From: an uncultured Candidatus Saccharibacteria bacterium
GTDB taxonomy: Bacteria > Patescibacteriota > Saccharimonadia > Saccharimonadales > UBA10212
Length of the DNA: 64,000 nt
Reading direction: 5' to 3'
NCBI GenBank assembly: GCA_964483315.1
Contig: CAZAAL010000001.1
Coordinates: forward strand, 122,850 to 186,849
Part shown: piece after piece, positions 24,773-49,035 of the stretch
Layout: each line of letters starts with the position of its first letter
Position numbering within the stretch: the stretch's first letter is position 1
Notes under the pieces: model-generated
What the model saw: the letters and a program-made list of their open reading frames with translations, nothing else
What the model was told of the DNA's origin: nothing
Databases searched by the model: none
Position numbers and translations under genes: made by a program

Positions 24773-25086
24773 CTAAACAGATTTACTGAATTTGACCAGG
24801 CAGGGATTTATAAGTTGGAGCTAACCGCAACGCCGTTGTTACCGATGCCTATAAACGTTGGCTTTTTAAGCGGGGAGCTATGTGATTGTATGGATGCATG
24901 CTTTTTATGGCAAGCAAAATTTATTAAAGCAACCCAACCAATTTATGAGTAGCTAATAAAAGTATAACCTAAATAATATCTAACTACATAATTGGTACAT
25001 ATGTTAAAAAAATGTAGATGGTTTTAGATATAAAAATAACGCCTATGGGGCGCTTTTTCGAATAATTTAAATTAAAAGTTTGTCTC

Positions 25087-25120
25087 GGGAGGGGTGGTCT
25101 CTTTCGAGACCACCCCTCCC
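25087..25120 (-). terminator. GC-rich hairpin terminator of the foreign gene
   Basis: Perfect 15-bp stem gggaggggtggtctc / gagaccacccctccc with loop tttc, located 10 nt after the minus-strand stop. Confidence 0.6.
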
Positions 25121-25130
25121 TCGCACCGAA

Positions 25131-25838
25131 CTACTCCACCTCGAGGGTGTAGTCGAGCGGGTTCGACCGGACCAGGCCGGCACCGACCGAATCGACGCTC
25201 ACCACCTCTCCACCGTTGCCGGTGGAGACGAACCTACCGGTGGGCTTGCCACCGGCACAGGTCAGGAAATGATTCCCGACCTTGAAGTCCGTCTTCTGGC
25301 TCTTGCTGGCCACTGGCACGCGTGCGCCGGCGTCGAGCTTCTTCTGGGCGACTGCGCGAGAGACGATCTCGATCGAGTTCGGACCCGCGCCGTAGCACAG
25401 GAAGAAGCTTCGATCGCTCATCTGCACGCACTGCCCGCGGGCGACCAGGTAGATCCAGTAGCCTGGATCGAACAGCCCTTCCGGGCTGTCGTATCCCGGC
25501 TCCGGGATGAAGTACAGCACCTTGTCCAGGGGCTGGTAGTAGCCCAGGTAGAGGGTGCTCCTGCTGCCGGGCAGCTGGATCGCGAGCTCGGCGATTCCCT
25601 GCGTCAGGGTCTTCGACCCGTCCTCGTAGTAGATGGTGGTCGGGAGGACTCCTTCCTGCTGGTCGAGGAGCTGGCCGAGCCCGGTGGTTGCCTGGTCGGG
25701 CGTTCCGCCCTTCAGGCAGTACACCGTGTCGGCCGGAGGCATCACGATGTCGTCGCCGCCGTTCGCCAGCGCGGTGCTGGTGAGGACGCTTGCCGTCAGG
25801 ACGAGCCCGACGACGAGTGCGATGAGTCTCTTCAAGAG
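25131..25838 (-). CDS. secreted hypothetical protein encoded in a high-GC (about 65%) foreign island
   Basis: Signal peptide MKRLIALVVGLVLTASVLTSTALA if the TTG start at 25836 is used (GGAGG SD lies 8 nt upstream). The ORF track gives a GTG start at 25844. Codon usage is GC3-rich, unlike the surrounding genes. Confidence 0.65.
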   Translation of the reverse strand, partial: LLKRLIALVVGLVLTASVLTSTALANGGDDIVMPPADTVYCLKGGTPDQATTGLGQLLDQQEGVLPTTIYYEDGSKTLTQGIAELAIQLPGSRSTLYLGYYQPLDKVLYFIPEPGYDSPEGLFDPGYWIYLVARGQCVQMSDRSFFLCYGAGPNSIEIVSRAVAQKKLDAGARVPVASKSQKTDFKVGNHFLTCAGGKPTGRFVSTGNGGEVVSVDSVGAGLVRSNPLDYTLEVE

Positions 25839-25927
25839 ACTCACCTCCTTTCGGTTGTTGAGTTGTATTCGGTGCGCGAGTACATCAAAAAAGCTGTAAA
25901 AGCCCTTTTTGATGTCTCAGAACCAAT

Positions 25928-25956
25928 ACTTTACTAGAAAATTAATAAAATGTCAA
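25928..25956 (-). promoter_or_regulatory. sigma70-like promoter (TTGACA-17-TAAAGT) driving the foreign gene
   Basis: Minus-strand TTGACAttttattaattttctagTAAAGT lies in AT-rich native-like sequence abutting the GC-rich island. Confidence 0.45.
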
Positions 25957-25976
25957 TATATAAACTAATGTTATTA

Positions 25977-26252
25977 TTAAACAACTACGCCGTAAAATCC
26001 TTCAAGCAATTTATAAACTACATAGGCTGGCCACACCAAAGCTTTTAAAAAGCCTGTAACAACGGCGCCAAAACCAACAGCGGCTTGCATCCAATAAACT
26101 AATGCCCCAACAAAGCCAACAAAATAAAGTGCTCCGCTTGTACCATGGTTAGATTTGTTCCCAGGTTTTTTGCTCCACTCTTTCCACTCTTTTGCGCCTT
26201 TTACTCTGGCCTTTATTTCGATTTGTGGGTCTTCTGATTTTTGCTTTGCCAT
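25977..26252 (-). CDS. small membrane protein
   Basis: 91 aa, two hydrophobic helices, K-rich N-terminus. Confidence 0.45.
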   Translation of the reverse strand: MAKQKSEDPQIEIKARVKGAKEWKEWSKKPGNKSNHGTSGALYFVGFVGALVYWMQAAVGFGAVVTGFLKALVWPAYVVYKLLEGFYGVVV

Positions 26253-28934: not shown

Positions 28935-28946
28935 TTTACATTTCTC

Positions 28947-29245
28947 TGGCTCCGGGGACTGGATTCGAACCAGCGACCTAGTGGTTACACCTTAATCACT
29001 ACTTTCATAATGTGTGGACTATCTTATCATCCGATTACTCGGAGCAGGGCGCTAATGAGAGTTTATTGTTAGGCTCACTCTCTAGTCTCTGAACCTTCCA
29101 AGATCCTTTATCCTAATTTTGGCTTGGCTGCAGATTAGCATATCTTGCGACTTAGCTTTCCCGCAATTCACCCTATTTTCGAGTTTGGTTACCCAAACAA
29201 GCTGCAATTTTACAGCCACCCGCTCTACCGCTGAGCTACCCCGGA
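28947..29245 (-). tRNA. tRNA-Asn(GUU) interrupted by a 224-nt group I intron in the anticodon loop
   Basis: 5' half (minus strand) is TCCGGGG-TA-GCTC-AGCGGTA-GAGC-G-GGTGG-CTGT, at 29212-29245. 3' half is TAA-CCACT-AGGTC-GCTGG-TTCGAAT-CCAGT-CCCCGGA-G-CCA, at 28947-28987. Joined, they give a 75-nt cloverleaf with loop CUGUUAA, U1-A72 and G73, closely matching bacterial tRNA-Asn. Confidence 0.8.
28988..29211 (-). mobile_element. group I self-splicing intron (IC3-like, similar to the cyanobacterial tRNA-Leu intron core)
   Basis: Core motifs GGGAAAGCUAAG, GCAGCCAAGCC and GGUUCAGAGACUAGAGAG are present. The 5' exon ends in U (GCUGU), which can pair with intron GCAGC (P1). The intron ends in G (AAGGUG). 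There is no internal ORF. Confidence 0.7.
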
Positions 29246-29342
29246 ATAAGCCAGAGAAATATAAACCATATTTTTAATGAACAGTTGATTAACAGATGAG
29301 ATTATACGTACGTTATGGTTTAAAATCAACTACGAAAGCAAA

Positions 29343-31584: not shown

Positions 31585-31712
31585 AAACACTTGTCAAACA
31601 GATTAAATTGCTTATACTTAATTATTAGTATCACTGACACACAAATAATTTAACAAAAATTGTGCAGTGGGACTCGCACCCTACTACTGTGAATAAGATA
31701 AAAATAACCTGG

Positions 31713-34700
31713 ATGAGAATATTCATGGTCACTGCTGTTATTGTGGCCTTGTTTTTCGTGGTGAGTTGGGGTGTTTCCAAATTAGTACCGGACAAAGTTA
31801 CTTTTAGGGGTAGCATTAAAACCGAAAAAGGCTCATTGCCCGATGGTTCATATGACGTAAGGGTAAGGTCTTTTAATGCGCTAAACTCATCAGACTTGTT
31901 ATACCAAATGGATTTTAAATCCATCCAGGTTAAAGACGGTCAATATGAGCTTGGCTACAATCTAAACAAAGAGTTTGCTTCTGTGCCTGCAGTAGTGGAG
32001 ATTTGTATAGACTCCGGTGATGGGTTTAAGGATAAGGATGGTAATGTATGTGCCGATGGTAGCTCGGACAGTATTTATGACTATGCACTTTGCCCCTACT
32101 ATATGCGGTCTAGGGCTGATGGATCATTCGCTTGGTTGATTAACCGAAAGGTTTACACCGAGCGCAATATGATTAAATGTCCGAATCTTGAAAAAGGCAC
32201 AACAGCTAGTAGTGAAAGCATAATCGAAAAGGCAAACGAGGCTGGGCTTAACGTATCGCTAATAAGCGCTGGCAATAAAAATCAGGTGGTTAACAACATC
32301 ACGAATATCAACCAAGTTGATGATCCGCAAACTCTAGTTATTGAGGGTAACGTGCTTTATATAAGTGGTGGCAATAGTGTAGTTTTACCAAGCTCTGGCT
32401 ATGGGGATACAGTTGATAATGATACGACTTATAGTGCTGGTAGTGGTTTGGTTTTAAACTCTACGACCTTTAGCCGTGAGTCGGGTTCGACCAATGGTCA
32501 GATTGAGGTCTGGGATGGCTCAAACTGGACTGATTTATCTGCCGGGACTAATGGGCAAGTCCTAACTATCGTGGGCGGTACGCCTGTCTGGCAATCAGGC
32601 GGAGCAGAAACTGATGGTGTAATTGGTAACGAGATAACAAATGTTGATGGAACAACTGGCTTGGCTCGAACTGGTACCGGTACTACTGGTGACCCATTTA
32701 TCGTGGCGCTTACCACAACCGGCGTTAGCGCTGGAACTTACAACAATGTCACAGTTAACGCCTACGGGCGTGTTACGTCTGCAAGCAATATTGCTTATCT
32801 GACATCTGAAACCGATGGGATAGTTGGTAATGAGCTAACTAATCTTACGGCGGGTGATGGTAAAGGCATACTTACCCGTAGCGGTACAGGTACCGGTGGA
32901 GACCCATATACCTTGAGCGTAGCTACTTGTGGCTTAAACCAAATTTTTAAATCTAATGGCAGTAGCTGGGCCTGCTCCTCCGACGTCGACACCGACACAA
33001 CCTACTCAGCTGGTAATGGTCTAAGTTTATCTACCACTACTTTTTCAGTTAACTCACCAACTTGTGCTGGCACCGACAAACTCCAATGGAATGGATCAGC
33101 TTTTGTATGTTCAGCTGATGTAGATACCGATACTGACACCACTGACTTTAATGTTTCAGCTCAAGGTACAGTTGGCTCACAAAACATAGCTGATGGTGGA
33201 ACAGTCTCATTCAGTAACGGCACAGGCACTACCGCCACTCGCTCAGGTTCAGCAGTTACCTATAGCCTAAACGATACAGCTGTAACAACTGGCACATATG
33301 GAACTAGTTCTAGTGTTGCTCAGTTCACAGTCGACCAACAAGGTCGAATCACTGGAGCCAGCTCAGTAGCTATAGACTTTGCCGGTAATGCTGTAACTAG
33401 CGTAACAGCCGGCAGTGGACTAACTAACGGTGGTGGCCCCGGAGCAATCACCATTAATGTTGGAGCTGGTAATGGTATTACAGTAAACGCTAACGACATA
33501 ACCGTAGATACTCTAGACTCAGCCGATGCTTTATCTTCAACCACATCAAATGGTTCTGGCTTAGAAGTCCTAGCTTCTGGTATTGGTCTATTACAAGGCT
33601 GTTCAGATAACCAAATCCTTAAATGGAATGAAGCTGGTGATCTATGGGGATGTGCTAATGACACAGATACCGATACCGACACTACAAACTTCAACATTCG
33701 AGCCAATGCCGGAGCTAGCGCCAATATCTCATCCGGCGGTACAGTTAGCTTTGTAGATGGTACTGGTACCACGGCTTCACGCTCTGGTAATGACATAGCC
33801 TTTAATCTAACTACAACTGGGGTTAGTGCTAATAGCTACGGTTCATCTACTCAAGTACCAGTCTTTACAGTAGATGCCTACGGACGTATATCTAGTGTTA
33901 CTAATACCAGTATTAACTTCCCGGCAGAGGTAGATGGTGTAGTAGGCAATGAAGTTACCAATGCCACATCAAATGCTGGCTTAACTCGTTCTGGTACTGG
34001 CACAGGTGGTGACCCATACACTCTAGGCGTATTACTACCATCTGCTACTGATGCCTTATCTTCAACAACTTCAACAGGCTCTGGTTTAGAACTCACATCA
34101 TCAGGACTTTCATTAATCCAAGGCTGTTCTAATAACCAAATCCTTAAATGGAATGAGACAAGTGATGTTTGGGCCTGCTCCTCCGACGTCGACACCGACA
34201 CAACCTACTCAGCTGGTAATGGTCTAAGTTTATCTACCACTACTTTTTCAGTTAACTCACCAACTTGTGCTGGCACCGACAAACTCCAATGGAATGGATC
34301 AGCTTTTGTATGTTCAGCTGATGTAGATACCGATACTGACACCACTGACTTTAATGTTTCAGCTCAAGGTACAGTTGGCTCACAAAACATAGCTGATGGT
34401 GGAACAGTCTCATTCAGTAACGGCACAGGCACTACCGCCACTCGCTCAGGTTCAGCAGTTACCTATAGCCTAAACGATACAGCTGTAACAACTGGCACAT
34501 ATGGAACTAGTTCTAGTGTTGCTCAGTTCACAGTCGACCAACAAGGTCGAATCACTGGAGCCAGCTCAGTAGCTATAGACTTTGCCGGTAATGCTGTAAC
34601 TAGCGTAACAGCCGGCAGTGGACTAACTAACGGTGGTGGCCCCGGAGCAATCACCATTAATGTTGGAGCTGGTAATGGTATTACAGTAAACGCTAACGAC

Positions 34701-36926
34701 ATAACCGTAGATACTCTAGACTCAGCCGATGCTTTATCTTCAACCACATCAAATGGTTCTGGCTTAGAAGTCCTAGCTTCTGGTATTGGTCTATTACAAG
34801 GCTGTTCAGATAACCAAATCCTTAAATGGAATGAAGCTGGTGATCTATGGGGATGTGCGGCGGATGCAAGCGGTGGCTCAATGACAATTGGCACGATCAA
34901 TTCACAAACAAAAAGCGCTGACGGAGCTGTAATATCATCAGGCGTATTGTATATGCAAACTGCCGACGGCACTAACCCTGGCTTAGTGAGTACTGGTGCA
35001 CAAAGTTTTGCAGGCAATAAAACATTTAGTGATGCATTAATCGCAACTTGTACGAATACTTCTACTAATGTTTTATGTGACGGCGGCAACACTAGGGGCG
35101 CAGGAATCGTCTTAGGATCTAACGATAACTTTGGCCTGACTTTTGAAACAAACAACACTACTGCAATGACAATTGCTAACAATGGTGCAATTACTATTGG
35201 AGCAACAACGATTGATCAGGCTATAACAATTGATAATGGGACAGGTGCGCTTAGCCTAGGTAATAGTAGTGATGCAAAGACAATCAATATTGGTACCGGT
35301 ACTGGTATCGATACTATCAATATTGGTACCGGTGCAACCTCTGCCGATGCAATAACCTTTGGTAATACGGGGGTAGCTACTACCCTAACATTCAACTCTG
35401 GAGTTTCTACTACTACTGCAATGTCATTTAACCTAAATTCATTAACTAGCGGCAACGGACTGGTCTTAAGCGCAACTAGCGTGACATCGGGCGAGGTATT
35501 CGAGATTCTTGGGCCTTCTAGCAGGAGTATTTTAAGAGTCAAAAATGAATCGGCTGACCCACTGGATGATCAACGGGTAATAATTGGTCAGGGTGGTTTG
35601 GCAAGCTCTAAACCGGATGAGCTTGCTCGGGATCAGCTCTATGTGTTTGGTCGAATTAACTATAGCTGGAACATGTTTAGCCAAGATTTTTTGGGTGGAG
35701 CTACGAATCTAACAGCGGATGGCACGGCATTTAACGCATACTATGACGAAGTGGCAGGTTCTGGTGGTACTGCACCATCTGGAGTTATGAACCAACAAAG
35801 TCTTGCATCTGGCTCTGGTGCTGGTCGGTTAACATTTAGTGGTACCCTTGGTACAGGACCTTGGGCTAGCTTGTATGGCACGAACGTTAACGTTACAGAA
35901 CGCTCGCTCAACCCGGTCTTTGAGGCTCGCATACAGGCAAGCTCAAACACAGACCAAAGGGCAATCGCTGGCTTTACAGATATTGCACTTAACACGGCCA
36001 TTGCAGCCGATACAAACAATTCAGCTAACGAGGTATTCTTTAGAAAAACAGCTGCTGGCACAAACTGGGAGGCAGTCACCCGAAACGCAAGCGGAGCAGA
36101 AAATGTCACGGGATTAGGAACCGCTTGTGCTGGAGGTACAGCGTGTACAACTGCTGCAATGCGGACAATGAGGATCGAGCTAGAAAACGTTGGCGCAAAC
36201 GGAACCGCTAGGTTTTATATTGATGGTACATTGGTAGCGACTCATACTACCGCAGCTGTGCCGGCTAACACTACAAGACTTGGCTGGAAGATTGGCACAA
36301 CACCAACCACAACAACCTACACTGGTCGGGTAGTTGATATAGATTACGTTAGAGTTTGGAGTGACGACCCTCCAACTGATGTGTTGGGCCAGGCATTAAG
36401 TACTACAATTATTGATAATTCTAACCAAGAGCAAGTTGATCAGATTGAGCTAACGACATTTGATTTAGTTGGTAACCAAGAAGAGCTAGCTAACTTAATC
36501 GATGGCCTAAGAGATGATGTTAATTGGCTAAAAGGTCAGGGTGTAGCCGATGCAGCTCTGAATGGGGGTTTGGTATCCGGCAATACAACTTTTGCTGATT
36601 TTGTGACATTTAATAGCGGGGTCACGTTTGACTCTACAGTAGATTTTGGAGGGGATGTTAAATTTATTGGTCAGGCTGAATTTGATGGGCACGTAATTTT
36701 TGGAACCGATGGTGCTGGTACGCTCGAGCTTGAAGCGGGTCAAACATCAACTAGATTTGCATTTGCAAAACCTTATCAAAAGCCTCCTGTTGTTACTGTA
36801 ACACCACTTGATTATGATGCCGGTTTTAGGCTCACAAACGTAGACGAAACAGGCTTTACGATTACTATTTCGACTAGTCAGAATACTCAAACTAGGTTTA
36901 ACTGGATTGTTGTTGGGCGTCAATAG
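31713..36926 (+). CDS. giant repeat-containing cell-surface protein with C-terminal H-type-lectin-like domain (candidate adhesin)
   Basis: The ORF track gives a GTG start at 31662. ATG 31713 (MRIFMVTAVIVALFFVVSWG, a TM/signal anchor) is more plausible. The body has ~200-aa G/T/S-rich repeats with the recurring motif GTYG..S.V..FTVD..GRI(T/S). The C-terminus FAFAKPYQKPPVVTVTPLDYDAGFRLTNVDETGFTITISTSQNTQTRFNWIVVG fits the H-type lectin fold pattern. Confidence 0.75.
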   Translation: MRIFMVTAVIVALFFVVSWGVSKLVPDKVTFRGSIKTEKGSLPDGSYDVRVRSFNALNSSDLLYQMDFKSIQVKDGQYELGYNLNKEFASVPAVVEICIDSGDGFKDKDGNVCADGSSDSIYDYALCPYYMRSRADGSFAWLINRKVYTERNMIKCPNLEKGTTASSESIIEKANEAGLNVSLISAGNKNQVVNNITNINQVDDPQTLVIEGNVLYISGGNSVVLPSSGYGDTVDNDTTYSAGSGLVLNSTTFSRESGSTNGQIEVWDGSNWTDLSAGTNGQVLTIVGGTPVWQSGGAETDGVIGNEITNVDGTTGLARTGTGTTGDPFIVALTTTGVSAGTYNNVTVNAYGRVTSASNIAYLTSETDGIVGNELTNLTAGDGKGILTRSGTGTGGDPYTLSVATCGLNQIFKSNGSSWACSSDVDTDTTYSAGNGLSLSTTTFSVNSPTCAGTDKLQWNGSAFVCSADVDTDTDTTDFNVSAQGTVGSQNIADGGTVSFSNGTGTTATRSGSAVTYSLNDTAVTTGTYGTSSSVAQFTVDQQGRITGASSVAIDFAGNAVTSVTAGSGLTNGGGPGAITINVGAGNGITVNANDITVDTLDSADALSSTTSNGSGLEVLASGIGLLQGCSDNQILKWNEAGDLWGCANDTDTDTDTTNFNIRANAGASANISSGGTVSFVDGTGTTASRSGNDIAFNLTTTGVSANSYGSSTQVPVFTVDAYGRISSVTNTSINFPAEVDGVVGNEVTNATSNAGLTRSGTGTGGDPYTLGVLLPSATDALSSTTSTGSGLELTSSGLSLIQGCSNNQILKWNETSDVWACSSDVDTDTTYSAGNGLSLSTTTFSVNSPTCAGTDKLQWNGSAFVCSADVDTDTDTTDFNVSAQGTVGSQNIADGGTVSFSNGTGTTATRSGSAVTYSLNDTAVTTGTYGTSSSVAQFTVDQQGRITGASSVAIDFAGNAVTSVTAGSGLTNGGGPGAITINVGAGNGITVNANDITVDTLDSADALSSTTSNGSGLEVLASGIGLLQGCSDNQILKWNEAGDLWGCAADASGGSMTIGTINSQTKSADGAVISSGVLYMQTADGTNPGLVSTGAQSFAGNKTFSDALIATCTNTSTNVLCDGGNTRGAGIVLGSNDNFGLTFETNNTTAMTIANNGAITIGATTIDQAITIDNGTGALSLGNSSDAKTINIGTGTGIDTINIGTGATSADAITFGNTGVATTLTFNSGVSTTTAMSFNLNSLTSGNGLVLSATSVTSGEVFEILGPSSRSILRVKNESADPLDDQRVIIGQGGLASSKPDELARDQLYVFGRINYSWNMFSQDFLGGATNLTADGTAFNAYYDEVAGSGGTAPSGVMNQQSLASGSGAGRLTFSGTLGTGPWASLYGTNVNVTERSLNPVFEARIQASSNTDQRAIAGFTDIALNTAIAADTNNSANEVFFRKTAAGTNWEAVTRNASGAENVTGLGTACAGGTACTTAAMRTMRIELENVGANGTARFYIDGTLVATHTTAAVPANTTRLGWKIGTTPTTTTYTGRVVDIDYVRVWSDDPPTDVLGQALSTTIIDNSNQEQVDQIELTTFDLVGNQEELANLIDGLRDDVNWLKGQGVADAALNGGLVSGNTTFADFVTFNSGVTFDSTVDFGGDVKFIGQAEFDGHVIFGTDGAGTLELEAGQTSTRFAFAKPYQKPPVVTVTPLDYDAGFRLTNVDETGFTITISTSQNTQTRFNWIVVGRQ
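32967..33655 (+). repeat. 689-bp direct repeat, copy 1 (inside the giant gene)
   Basis: Identical to 34170-34858 (offset 1203 bp). Encodes an identical 229-aa block. Confidence 0.85.
34170..34858 (+). repeat. 689-bp direct repeat, copy 2 (inside the giant gene)
   Basis: By eye it is a perfect copy of 32967-33655. The 514-bp segment between the copies is a diverged relative of the same unit. Confidence 0.85.
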
Positions 36927-47212: not shown

Positions 47213-47596
47213 ATGATAACTATTTTAGTAGATGCGATTGACGGCCTAATAAATGATGACGGAACGGTTTTTGAGGAAATGCATTCACTGCTCGAGACAT
47301 ATCCTAACAATAAAATTGTTTTAACCGGTGCGAACGATGAGCAGTTTAAGCAATTTAAGTTAGATAAGTGCCCGTATCCAGTTTTTACGCTTAAACATAA
47401 TCCTGAAAAAACAGACCCACAATATTACAAAATTCTTCTTAAAAACTACAATTTGAAAGCCAATGAAGTTATATATTTTGAGCATAATGAAGATGCTGTA
47501 AAAAGTGCCAAGTCGGTTGGAATAAATTCCTACTTTTATGACCATACAAAAAAAGATTTAGCCAGTTTAAAGAAATTTATCGACATTAACCTATAA
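47213..47596 (+). CDS. hypothetical protein
   Basis: 127 aa with a good SD (aaaggag). No motif recognised. Confidence 0.45.
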   Translation: MITILVDAIDGLINDDGTVFEEMHSLLETYPNNKIVLTGANDEQFKQFKLDKCPYPVFTLKHNPEKTDPQYYKILLKNYNLKANEVIYFEHNEDAVKSAKSVGINSYFYDHTKKDLASLKKFIDINL

Positions 47597-47605
47597 AAAG
47601 CGAAT

Positions 47606-47639
47606 GCCCCGCACCCAGTCCGAAGACCAAGTGCGGGGC
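47606..47639 (-). terminator. GC-rich hairpin terminator of the second foreign operon (possibly bidirectional)
   Basis: gccccgcac ...16 nt... gtgcggggc, followed on the minus strand by auucgcuuuuu. Confidence 0.6.
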
Positions 47640-47650
47640 AGGTTGTGGGT

Positions 47651-47743
47651 TTACTTGTTTCTCTTACTCCTGCGCCACCTGATGACCGAGAGCAGAACTC
47701 CCGTGACAGCGAGAAGCAGGATGATGGTGATAACACCGTTCAT
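47651..47743 (-). CDS. 30-aa hydrophobic peptide (MNGVITIILLLAVTGVLLSVIRWRRSKRNK), translationally coupled
   Basis: Its ATG overlaps the TGA of the upstream 130-aa ORF (cgATGAac). GC-rich codons. The ORF track's longer 47651-47860 frame is rejected upstream of this ATG. Confidence 0.45.
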   Translation of the reverse strand: MNGVITIILLLAVTGVLLSVIRWRRSKRNK

Positions 47744-48132
47744 CGACAGTACCTCCCGATTTTGGGATCGGATGGACTGTAGGCGATTGGCACGATCTGC
47801 GGAGCAAAGGGCACAGGTACTATCTTGATCCTGATGCACTTGCCGTCTGCCAGAGCCCACGCTGCTCTTGCTGCGACCAGCGACAAGCCGGCCGAAACAA
47901 TCACGTTCGCAGGCGGAGGCAGTGCAGCTGCCAACGCCGAACCAGCTCCCGTTCCGATTCCGAACTTTTCAGTGCCACGCTTGGACAGGTAAACGTCACC
48001 TGTCACCCGGTGCCACTTAAAGACGTAGTCGGGCGGTTGCCGTTTGGGCTTATCGCCAGCCAGCGCCGGTGTTGCCACCAACGCTGACAGGCTTAGCCCA
48101 ATGAACAGTGTCACAATCTTGAGCTTCATCAC
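47740..48132 (-). CDS. secreted hypothetical protein in the second high-GC foreign island
   Basis: Signal peptide MMKLKIVTLFIGLSLSALVATPALA. SD GGAG 8 nt upstream. GC about 58-60% against about 38% background. Confidence 0.6.
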   Translation of the reverse strand: MMKLKIVTLFIGLSLSALVATPALAGDKPKRQPPDYVFKWHRVTGDVYLSKRGTEKFGIGTGAGSALAAALPPPANVIVSAGLSLVAARAAWALADGKCIRIKIVPVPFAPQIVPIAYSPSDPKIGRYCR

Positions 48133-48223
48133 TGAAGCTCCTTTCGATTAGGGGTCAGTTTACCCAACCCCCCCATTCGAAAGTGATACATCACGGAGAG
48201 TCCCACCTCACCGCAATCACGCT

Positions 48224-48252
48224 ATTTTACCATAACCATAATAAAAAGTCAA
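48224..48252 (-). promoter_or_regulatory. sigma70-like promoter (TTGACT-17-TAAAAT) for the second foreign operon
   Basis: Minus-strand ATATATTGACTTTTTATTA... is nearly identical to the -35 region upstream of the first island (ATATATTGACATTTTATTA). Confidence 0.45.
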
Positions 48253-48333
48253 TATATTACTAACTAAAGTCCACTTTACTAGATTTAATTTTATTGGTGG
48301 TTTATATTCTGTTTAGCTAAGGAGTTAAAGCTT

Positions 48334-49035
48334 ATGGCTTACGAGGCAAAAATTCACAACGCTCAGACCAGCATTTTGCGGGAGCTATTATTTAGGCCAT
48401 CTGCTGGGTATGCCGAACTCCAAAAACCGACCAAGCTAACGAGTGATCACTTTAACTTTCATATTAGCCGATTAGTTGAAATTGGCTACGTTGAAAAGGT
48501 ATCACGCGGAAAGTACAAGCTAACTCCGCGCGGAAAAGAATATGCCAACAAACTTGATACCGATAGAAACATCATAGAGCCACAACCAAAAAGTGCCGTT
48601 ATTTTAGCAATTAGGCGAGGTGATGAGTTTTTGTTTCAGGAACGCTTAAAGCATCCATACTATGGATTTTGGGGATTCCCTTCAGGCAAAATTCGATGGG
48701 GTGAAAGAATCCTAGAGACCGCCGAGCGAGAACTTATGGAAGAAACCGGACTAACAGCCGAAGACTTTAACCATAAAGGTATATATCATGAGCAGGTTTT
48801 TCAGGCCGAAAATGGCGAACAGCTTGAGGACAAAATTTTCCATATAATTCTGTGCACCAATACCCAAGGCAAACTGATTGAAAAGTTTGAGGGTGGGCGC
48901 AACGCATGGATGAATCTAGAACAAATATCTAAAGAAAAAAAGATATTCGAAAGCTATAAGTTTGAGGCAGATATTGCACTTGGCAAATTAGAATTTATCG
49001 AACGAAAAGTTCAGTACAAAAAAACCCAATTCTAA
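48334..49035 (+). CDS. winged-helix + NUDIX hydrolase domain protein
   Basis: N-terminal wHTH (ILRELLFRPSAGYAELQKPTKLTSDHFNFHISRLVEIGYV). Nudix box GKIRWGERILETAERELMEETGL. Confidence 0.7.
   Translation: MAYEAKIHNAQTSILRELLFRPSAGYAELQKPTKLTSDHFNFHISRLVEIGYVEKVSRGKYKLTPRGKEYANKLDTDRNIIEPQPKSAVILAIRRGDEFLFQERLKHPYYGFWGFPSGKIRWGERILETAERELMEETGLTAEDFNHKGIYHEQVFQAENGEQLEDKIFHIILCTNTQGKLIEKFEGGRNAWMNLEQISKEKKIFESYKFEADIALGKLEFIERKVQYKKTQF

Follow-up and report, generated by a model that had tools for sequence, protein, structure and literature searches.

Sec-dependent class II and III bacteriocins of Gram-positive bacteria are made as precursors with a signal peptide and are accompanied by small membrane immunity proteins, and the immunity proteins of membrane-depolarising toxins are often embedded in the membrane. 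Saccharibacteria live on Actinomycetota, the phylum of their known hosts, from which they extract resources. These hosts fight back with secreted effectors (PMC13622651), and gene flow between Saccharibacteria and host has been reported as not evident for the pairs profiled experimentally (PMC8406219). Toxin domains that depolarise membranes are delivered by Rhs, contact-dependent inhibition (CDI) or LXG proteins and come with cognate immunity (PMC10684867, PMC11630599, PMC12744356, PMC3482391). Described here is "island 2", a short GC-rich cassette of a Candidatus Saccharibacteria genome (contig CAZAAL010000001.1 of assembly GCA_964483315.1). The window, i.e., the whole stretch of DNA that was analysed, is 64,000 nt long (122,850-186,849 of the contig, forward strand). 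The cassette occupies positions 47595-48257 on its minus strand, where a promoter, a leader, an open reading frame (ORF) for a protein of 129 or 130 amino acids, an ORF for a 30-residue peptide and a terminator follow one another in that order.

Judged from sequence, the odds lean somewhat towards a horizontally acquired pair in which a Sec-secreted, membrane-targeting toxin is encoded with a minimal membrane immunity peptide. The pair would most likely work, by analogy, as the membrane-depolarising toxin-immunity pairs of Rhs, CDI and LXG proteins do. The first product would be exported through the Sec pathway, and a helical hairpin within it might then insert into the membrane of a target cell and depolarise or permeabilise it, while the 30-residue peptide would serve as the cognate immunity factor that protects the producer's own membrane. 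The cassette is a small and concrete effector candidate, and its family, which is without annotation or structural relatives, links Saccharibacteria to toxin systems of Actinomycetota. Were the toxin and immunity functions to hold true, a new toxin domain family would be at hand, as well as an example of a parasite and its host phylum having weapons in common. The candidate immunity protein is unusually small (27-38 amino acids among the cassettes compared), and a conserved structured leader precedes the pair.

A coupled gene pair of foreign composition

Across positions 47600-48100, bins of 50 nt have a GC content of 0.52-0.68, against a mean of 0.394 for the window (standard deviation (sd) 0.041 over 600-nt segments). 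Besides island 1, a second GC-rich locus that is taken up below, the nearest approach is made by a few segments of a 1754-residue ORF, near 35600-35800 (0.49-0.50). GC at third codon positions (GC3) reaches 0.63 in the large ORF (z = 8.1) and 0.71 in that of the peptide (z = 10.4), with 50 other ORFs of the window as background (0.335±0.036, maximum 0.428), and it stays between 0.61 and 0.73 in every host context in which the cassette occurs. At second codon positions the large ORF (GC2 0.52) is about level with the background maximum (0.523), and Ala, Gly and Pro abound in its protein. Because GC3 is so far above background, the high GC of island 2 goes beyond an effect of this amino acid composition, and at the codon level the cassette falls outside the range of the 50 ORFs. 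The first-pass annotation, made from the letters of the window without database searches, had described a foreign, GC-rich block read on the minus strand. All the features that it listed are in place, and the foreign composition is borne out at the codon level, at z-scores of 8 and 10.

The genome itself is assigned to Saccharibacteria because the closest matches to the aspartyl-tRNA synthetase (AspRS) gene about 400 bp from island 2 are 73-75% identical and come from Saccharibacteria/Saccharimonadales metagenome-assembled genomes. It is probably such an assembly as well, no culture being indicated, so it might be asked whether the block is a chimera of assembly or binning, or else a vertically inherited gene whose GC is driven by Ala, Gly and Pro, as the composition of the protein and its GC2 would allow. 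Either is scarcely credible. GC3, which is independent of amino acid composition, lies 8-10 sd above background, and five other lineages have the AT-rich promoter and the terminator as fixed parts of the cassette. The same junctions, with a NUDIX gene and with the AT-rich promoter, recur in an independent Logan assembly, L001; since that assembly holds the same cassette as well, an assembly chimera is excluded. No syntenic homologue was seen beside AspRS in about 45 Saccharibacteria representative genomes, but the HAD and NUDIX genes that flank island 2 are absent from those loci too.

The secreted-protein ORF (47740-48132, minus strand) gives 130 residues from a GTG at 48132 or 129 from an ATG at 48129. 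The ATG fits the Shine-Dalgarno sequence AAGGAG (about 48143-48138, minus) better, with a spacing of 8 nt, and equals the gene call on the sister contig. A Sec-type signal peptide, MKLKIVTLFIGLSLSALVATPALA (about 48129-48058, minus), with cleavage predicted before GD, precedes a mature domain of about 105 residues that has two conserved cysteines, C98 and C128; a putative disulfide between them could clamp the fold. The 30-residue peptide MNGVITIILLLAVTGVLLSVIRWRRSKRNK (47651-47743, minus) has a single transmembrane (TM) helix, and its C-terminal tail is polybasic. The ATG start of the peptide and the TGA stop of the large ORF overlap (ATGA), and 8 nt before this start lies an internal Shine-Dalgarno sequence, GGGAGG (47752-47757, minus), which also encodes the Gly-Arg in the conserved C-terminal GRYCR of the large protein. 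The peptide would thus be made by translational coupling, through the embedded GGGAGG and the overlapping start.

The arrangement recurs in related cassettes that encode proteins of similar length, here called short forms. Six of these could be compared (the window, L001, L085-87, L089, L091 and L092/96/99), and all have GGGAGGTACTGY followed by CGATGA, or by AAGTGA in the P0022 lineage. The junction GGG AGG TAC TGY (CGA/AAG) TGA is kept at the nucleotide level among proteins that are 33-47% identical, with GGGAGGTACTGYCGATGA invariant in five diverged short-form lineages and a GTGA overlap in one. That a junction should be conserved despite such divergence of the protein argues strongly for a real, translationally coupled peptide. 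Every readable short-form cassette has a peptide of 27-38 residues, with a TM helix and a basic tail, whose ORF overlaps the stop of the large ORF; in L001 and L092 it has been called as a gene. The proposal of a translationally coupled secreted protein and TM peptide therefore stands, as a genuine pair conserved over six cassettes. An intrinsic terminator (47595-47640, minus) closes the unit, with a 16-bp GC-rich stem (47640-47605) and a U-tail, TTCGCTTTTT, that runs to 47595 and abuts or overlaps the stop codon of a convergent HAD-like gene (47213-47596, plus). GC hairpins are also found 3' of the peptide ORF in L085, L089 and L092.

Relatives in Actinomycetota and described toxins

An exhaustive HMMER search over 1.84 billion representative proteins returned 29 matches at E<1e-3, of which 8 were at E<1e-10. 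The short forms among them are 120-137 residues long, comprise a signal peptide and the domain, and have 33-47% identity to the window protein. The long forms (150-480 residues) have the domain at the C-terminus, and they include proteins of Frankia sp. AiPs1 (with an RHS repeat-associated core), Streptomyces flavofungini and Jatrophihabitans sp. DSM 45814. Streptomyces and Frankia belong to Actinomycetota, as do all named members of the family; it is the sole phylum named among the annotated ones. Long-form loci have 63-76% GC. The matches can be aligned well, and the family alignment conserves a Trp, an E-T motif, a PPP turn, the two cysteines and a C-terminal G-[RY]-x-C-[RK]. Other searches reached less far. 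A word-index protein search recovered only the sister-strain copy from the single sequence and at least seven members from the alignment, and a metagenome scan with family alignment A4 gave no match. A search with the junction motif GGGAGGTACTGYCGATGA returned 35 loci. The true members among these are L096 and L099 (both of the type represented by protein P0027) and, as a long form with 75% GC, L111 and L122; the others are chance matches.

Searches with the proteins of islands 1 and 2, the 30-residue peptide and a number of homologues against Pfam, NCBIfam and PADLOC gave a single assignment, the RHS core of the Frankia protein P0033, and none for the island 2 protein. Apparent Pfam matches of P0025 and P0028-30 were discarded as low-complexity noise, with no significant stretch among them. 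By these searches the family is undescribed and rare, and the island 2 pair belongs to no described one.

P0033 carries TIGR03696 (Rhs_assc_core) at residues 221-300 (58.9 bits; cutoff 32.5), and the family domain begins directly after the DPSGQ motif of that core. In polymorphic toxins the variable toxin module sits at this place, C-terminal to the RHS core (PMC3482391). Three architectures were found in all: a signal peptide with the domain; a signal peptide, an N-terminal domain of about 150 residues and then the domain; and the RHS core with the domain. Thus one C-terminal domain is set on differing N-terminal modules, as in polymorphic toxins. A small gene directly downstream, which is also characteristic of such toxins, was found at every locus examined, and it encodes a TM protein. 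At the actinobacterial-type loci (L088, L090, L093, L094/95 and L111/L122) its product has 79-93 residues, with 1-3 TM segments in those scanned by hydropathy. The 30-residue peptide may be a minimal version of these multi-TM partners, reduced to their first TM segment (TM1) and basic loop. An immunity role, which the first-pass annotation had listed among several possibilities for the peptide, is the one that this context best supports.

An AlphaFold2 (AF2) model built on an alignment of 23 sequences has a mean predicted local distance difference test score (pLDDT) of 80.4 overall and of about 90 over the domain. The modelled order is beta-hairpin, helix 50-69, helix 74-94 and beta-hairpin, with the PPP turn in the helical hairpin. 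In 20 of the 23 sequences 41 residues separate the E-T motif from the first Cys. This stretch has a mean Kyte-Doolittle hydropathy of +1.0, is 44% Gly, Ala or Ser with few charges, and holds on average three small-xxx-small-xxx-small motifs per sequence. A hydrophobic hairpin of small residues, as modelled, is compatible with membrane insertion, although it is not diagnostic of it. Foldseek gave a best E of 0.49 against the PDB and no significant match against BFVD, and in a hidden Markov model (HMM) search of PDB sequences the top match, at E = 0.056, was an unrelated DUF2807 protein. Neither sequence nor fold homology to a characterised pore-forming domain was found in Pfam, NCBIfam, Foldseek against the PDB, or the HMM search of PDB sequences.

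How close, then, are the described systems? The Rhs toxin Tse5-CT of Pseudomonas aeruginosa and its partner Tsi5 (PMC10684867; framework in PMC3482391) are among the closest known counterparts of the family, in that the domain of Frankia P0033 directly follows the TIGR03696 core, a gene for a small multi-TM protein lies immediately downstream in the long forms, and the family domain is hydrophobic and helical. The family domain differs in having no detectable likeness of sequence or fold to any solved structure. The window protein differs further: it lacks an RHS shell and consists of just a Sec signal peptide and the domain, its partner is a single-pass peptide of 30 residues, its producer is a Saccharibacterium, and no type VI secretion system is involved. 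With glycine-zipper or ionophoric toxin domains of contact-dependent and type VII secretion systems, namely the CdiA-CT ionophores (PMC11630599) and the LXG toxin EsxX (PMC12744356), the family has in common small-xxx-small repeats in hydrophobic helices, pairing with a small adjacent candidate immunity gene, and the placement of one C-terminal domain on different N-terminal delivery modules. There is no sequence match to either, however, and delivery of the island 2 protein would be by Sec secretion. Also, whereas the CDI ionophores are predicted to be five-helix bundles, the family domain is modelled as two helices between two beta-hairpins and has two conserved cysteines.

In overall plan the window cassette comes close to the Sec-dependent class II and III bacteriocins. 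It has a signal peptide, a small mature protein with two cysteines that may be disulfide-bonded, a co-transcribed small hydrophobic candidate immunity gene, and a compact operon with its own promoter and terminator. Unlike them, the window protein matches no Pfam bacteriocin family and has homologues in the C-terminal domains of large proteins of Actinomycetota, and at about 105 residues the mature product is above the size typical of class II. A side observation concerns the P0027 lineage, in which an ABC transporter pair, an ATPase and an ABC-2 permease, immediately precedes the cassette (L092 2318-3870; L099 7949-9501). Such an order recalls the export or immunity operons of bacteriocins, and it is absent from the window.

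With neither a catalytic motif nor a known toxin fold to point to, and with a model that depicts a compact domain and not an obvious membrane protein, the pair might instead be a non-toxic factor of the envelope or of host interaction, with a secreted domain that binds or remodels some component of the cell surface or host surface, for example in attachment of the epibiont, and with the peptide as its membrane anchor, receptor or chaperone. Island 1, which has a similar promoter and encodes another secreted protein of high-GC lineage, could be taken in the same sense, as part of a set of surface factors. We hold this to be possible but doubtful. It leaves aside that the domain sits directly after an RHS core, in the position of a toxin (PMC3482391), that the combination of varied N-terminal delivery modules, a constant C-terminal domain and a strictly adjacent small TM gene is a toxin-immunity signature, and that the hydrophobic hairpin is constant in length and rich in small residues.

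Several observations do weigh against a horizontally acquired toxin-immunity pair. The hydropathy of the hairpin is only moderate (+1.0), and it is modelled as part of a soluble-looking domain. A single RHS fusion was found, that of Frankia P0033, whose gene shares sequence with an RHS ORF that lies upstream and is read in another frame; the gene may be frameshifted or an orphan C-terminal module. The resemblance of TM1 and the basic loop of the long partners (e.g., MPSIVGPLILPLGAIAFAVVTYFRDRRQRQ) to the short peptides was judged by eye. As to origin, the short-form clade has 52% bootstrap in a neighbour-joining tree, so that the direction and number of transfers are uncertain, and the taxonomy of the other short-form contigs is weakly supported.

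Sister strain, history and regulatory sequences

The Logan assembly L001 (1,225 bp), from a sister strain, has the same cassette at the same site, beside the same NUDIX-HTH gene. Nucleotide identity to the window is a mosaic: 87.8% in the distal part of the NUDIX gene, 100% over the first 237 nt of NUDIX-HTH, which adjoin the island (within window 48334-48800, compared with L001 1-537), 91.9% in the intergenic region and promoter, 93.4% in the leader, 96.2% in the large ORF and 81.1% in the peptide ORF. The pattern suggests recombination breakpoints in and around the cassette, and the stretch of complete identity suggests homologous recombination through the flanks. Rates of nonsynonymous and synonymous substitution (dN/dS) are 0.007/0.139 = 0.05 for the large ORF and 0.135/0.585 = 0.23 for the peptide ORF; by these ratios both genes are under purifying selection. 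The dS of the peptide ORF is four times that of the large ORF.

The faster evolution of the peptide gene (81% against 96% identity; dS 0.58 against 0.14) would fit retargeting of immunity or recombination, and could be read to mean that the cassette is kept mainly for a peptide that protects against host toxins of the family, with the secreted protein incidental or used in competition among kin. Actinomycetota do antagonise Saccharibacteria with secreted effectors (PMC13622651), and homologous domains do occur in toxin-like proteins of Actinomycetota. Even so, a primary role in immunity is decidedly unlikely, as the large ORF is itself under strong purifying selection (dN/dS 0.05) and is found whole, signal peptide included, in each of the six short-form cassettes, and no peptide gene was seen without a large ORF.

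Outside the sister strain the cassette is scarce. Searches of 185,579 GTDB species representatives with patterns for close relatives found none of the island 2 protein, and blastn and tblastn against plasmid and phage collections and a scan of viral contigs found no relative either; a phage or plasmid vehicle is thus unsupported. The borders of island 2 have only chance-level repeats (13 nt, 85% identity) and no att-like sites, and the adjacent ORFs include no integrase or transposase, so that the islet lacks a signature of mobility. A patchy distribution, as expected of a foreign gene, is upheld as far as the rarity of the family (8 matches at E<1e-10) and the lack of a GTDB relative go; a true empty site was not seen among the loci compared. 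The short-form contigs have 48-54% GC, and usable flanks are present in L092/96/99 only, where the best matches are to Saccharibacteria loci at 41-50% identity.

Conservation of promoter, leader, junction and terminator across the short forms makes another bacterium with such a cassette the probable immediate source of island 2, and the ultimate source would be Actinomycetota. The most economical history would begin with capture, from Actinomycetota, of the C-terminal domain and the start of the partner gene, followed by spread among Saccharibacteria-like genomes and by a fairly recent arrival in the 39%-GC lineage of the window. A bolder and unlikely extension of the toxin-immunity reading would have the obligate epibiont acquire, from the weapons with which its host phylum antagonises others, a toxin domain that permeabilises membranes, reduce the module to a Sec-secreted domain of about 105 residues and an immunity peptide of 30, and use it on the host membrane, for leakage of nutrients or for killing, or on rival epibionts, under the gate of a conserved and hitherto undescribed leader RNA that pairs with the Shine-Dalgarno sequence.

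Transcription would start from a sigma-70-type promoter (48224-48257, minus) with an AT-rich upstream flank. Its -35 element TTGACT (48252-48247), a 17-nt spacer and an extended -10, TG-n-TAAAAT (48229-48224), match the consensus at 10 of 12 positions. A promoter of this type, TTGACw-17-TGnTAnAAT, precedes every short-form cassette, and L091 and the window have GGTTATGGTAAAATAG in common. The first-pass annotation called the AT-rich promoter native-type. Native wiring at the insertion site is contradicted by the comparison, since promoter, leader and terminator belong to the conserved unit and travel with the cassette. It had also pointed to near-identical -35 regions in islands 1 and 2, and here the likeness is real: the 19-mer ATATATTGACWTTTTATTA has exactly two copies in the window, at 25943-25961 (island 1) and 48239-48257 (island 2), at least two matches arose in 1 of 100 shuffles even with three mismatches allowed, and none of 13 other promoter-like TTGACN sites of the window has the flanks of the 19-mer. 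A common route of acquisition or co-regulation, which had been proposed on this basis, finds no support, given that sister strain L001 matches 16 of 19 positions at the same promoter, that the 17-mer core of the motif is absent from 130 other retrieved loci, and that the proteins of islands 1 and 2 are not related to each other. In other family cassettes these flanks diverge. The likeness is regarded as that of two strong promoters with similar AT-rich flanks, which may have been homogenised or similarly selected in this genome.

Between promoter and start codon lies a leader of about 85-90 nt (48133-48217, minus), predicted to be structured with a minimum free energy (MFE) of -36.5 kcal/mol (z = -3.2). 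In the single-sequence fold a hairpin P1 (about 48217-48190, minus) is followed by a hairpin P2 (about 48189-48137, minus), whose 3' arm is GAAAG, from the Shine-Dalgarno region. Folded singly and aligned by hand, the leaders of the window, L085, L089, L091 and L092 give the two-hairpin fold in all five lineages, with MFE z-scores of -2.3 to -5.1, and the outer stem of P2 covaries through two compensatory changes, CGA/UCG against CAG/CUG. A G-rich motif, GGGAGGGUGGG, is common to the short forms and is paired within the hairpin. The G7 tract of the window (C7 on the plus strand, 48168-48174; read on the minus strand) represents a variant form of the motif and lies in P2, within the inner stem. 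It had been noted as a possible slippage site, but the tract is G7 in L001 also, of constant length between the two strains and within a conserved paired motif, and phase variation is unsupported.

The conserved leader is possibly a new cis-regulatory element; Rfam gave no match over it, whether at gathering thresholds or at E<=10. An anti-Shine-Dalgarno CUUUC could alternatively pair with the G-rich motif of the leader. Predicted pairing of the Shine-Dalgarno sequence itself is 0.5-1.0, and 10 control genes of the window, with a mean of 0.65, do not lie clearly below this; for this reason a riboswitch is not claimed.

Island 1 and other features of the window

Two cases of high-GC genes are embedded in this one 64-kb window of a 39%-GC epibiont, one of them with named actinobacterial relatives. 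The other, island 1 (25038-25961, minus), has the promoter TTGACA-17-TAAAGT (25956 to 25928), an ORF for a secreted protein of 234 or 237 residues (25131-25844, minus) and GC hairpins at 25085-25118 and 25054-25038 (minus). Its layout had been described as the same as that of island 2. This is so for the promoter, the secreted-protein ORF and the GC hairpin; the coupled peptide is found in island 2 only, and island 1 is a single gene. GC3 of the island 1 ORF is 0.87 (z = 14.9), and its homologues, at 41-57% identity and without a Pfam family, are on contigs of 68-74% GC whose gene content looks actinobacterial. Island 1 points, independently, to high-GC donors.

Beside island 1, a small membrane protein of 91 residues (25977-26252, minus) is 50% identical over 44 residues to a sequence at 2914-3045 of L099, the contig that also carries a cassette of the P0027 type; it may be a common small membrane protein of Saccharibacteria. 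A tRNA gene at 28935-29250 (minus) has a group I intron (RF00028, 28996-29221, 72.5 bits) inserted into its anticodon loop, with the exon halves GGGGTAGCTCAGCGGTAGAGCGGGTGGCTGTAAAA and ACCACTAGGTCGCTGGTTCGAATCCAGTCCCCGGAGCCA on either side; ARAGORN gave no tRNA for any part of the window. The 1754-residue ORF mentioned above (31662-36926, plus), with a moderately raised GC of 0.44-0.49, is the third most GC-rich stretch of the window.

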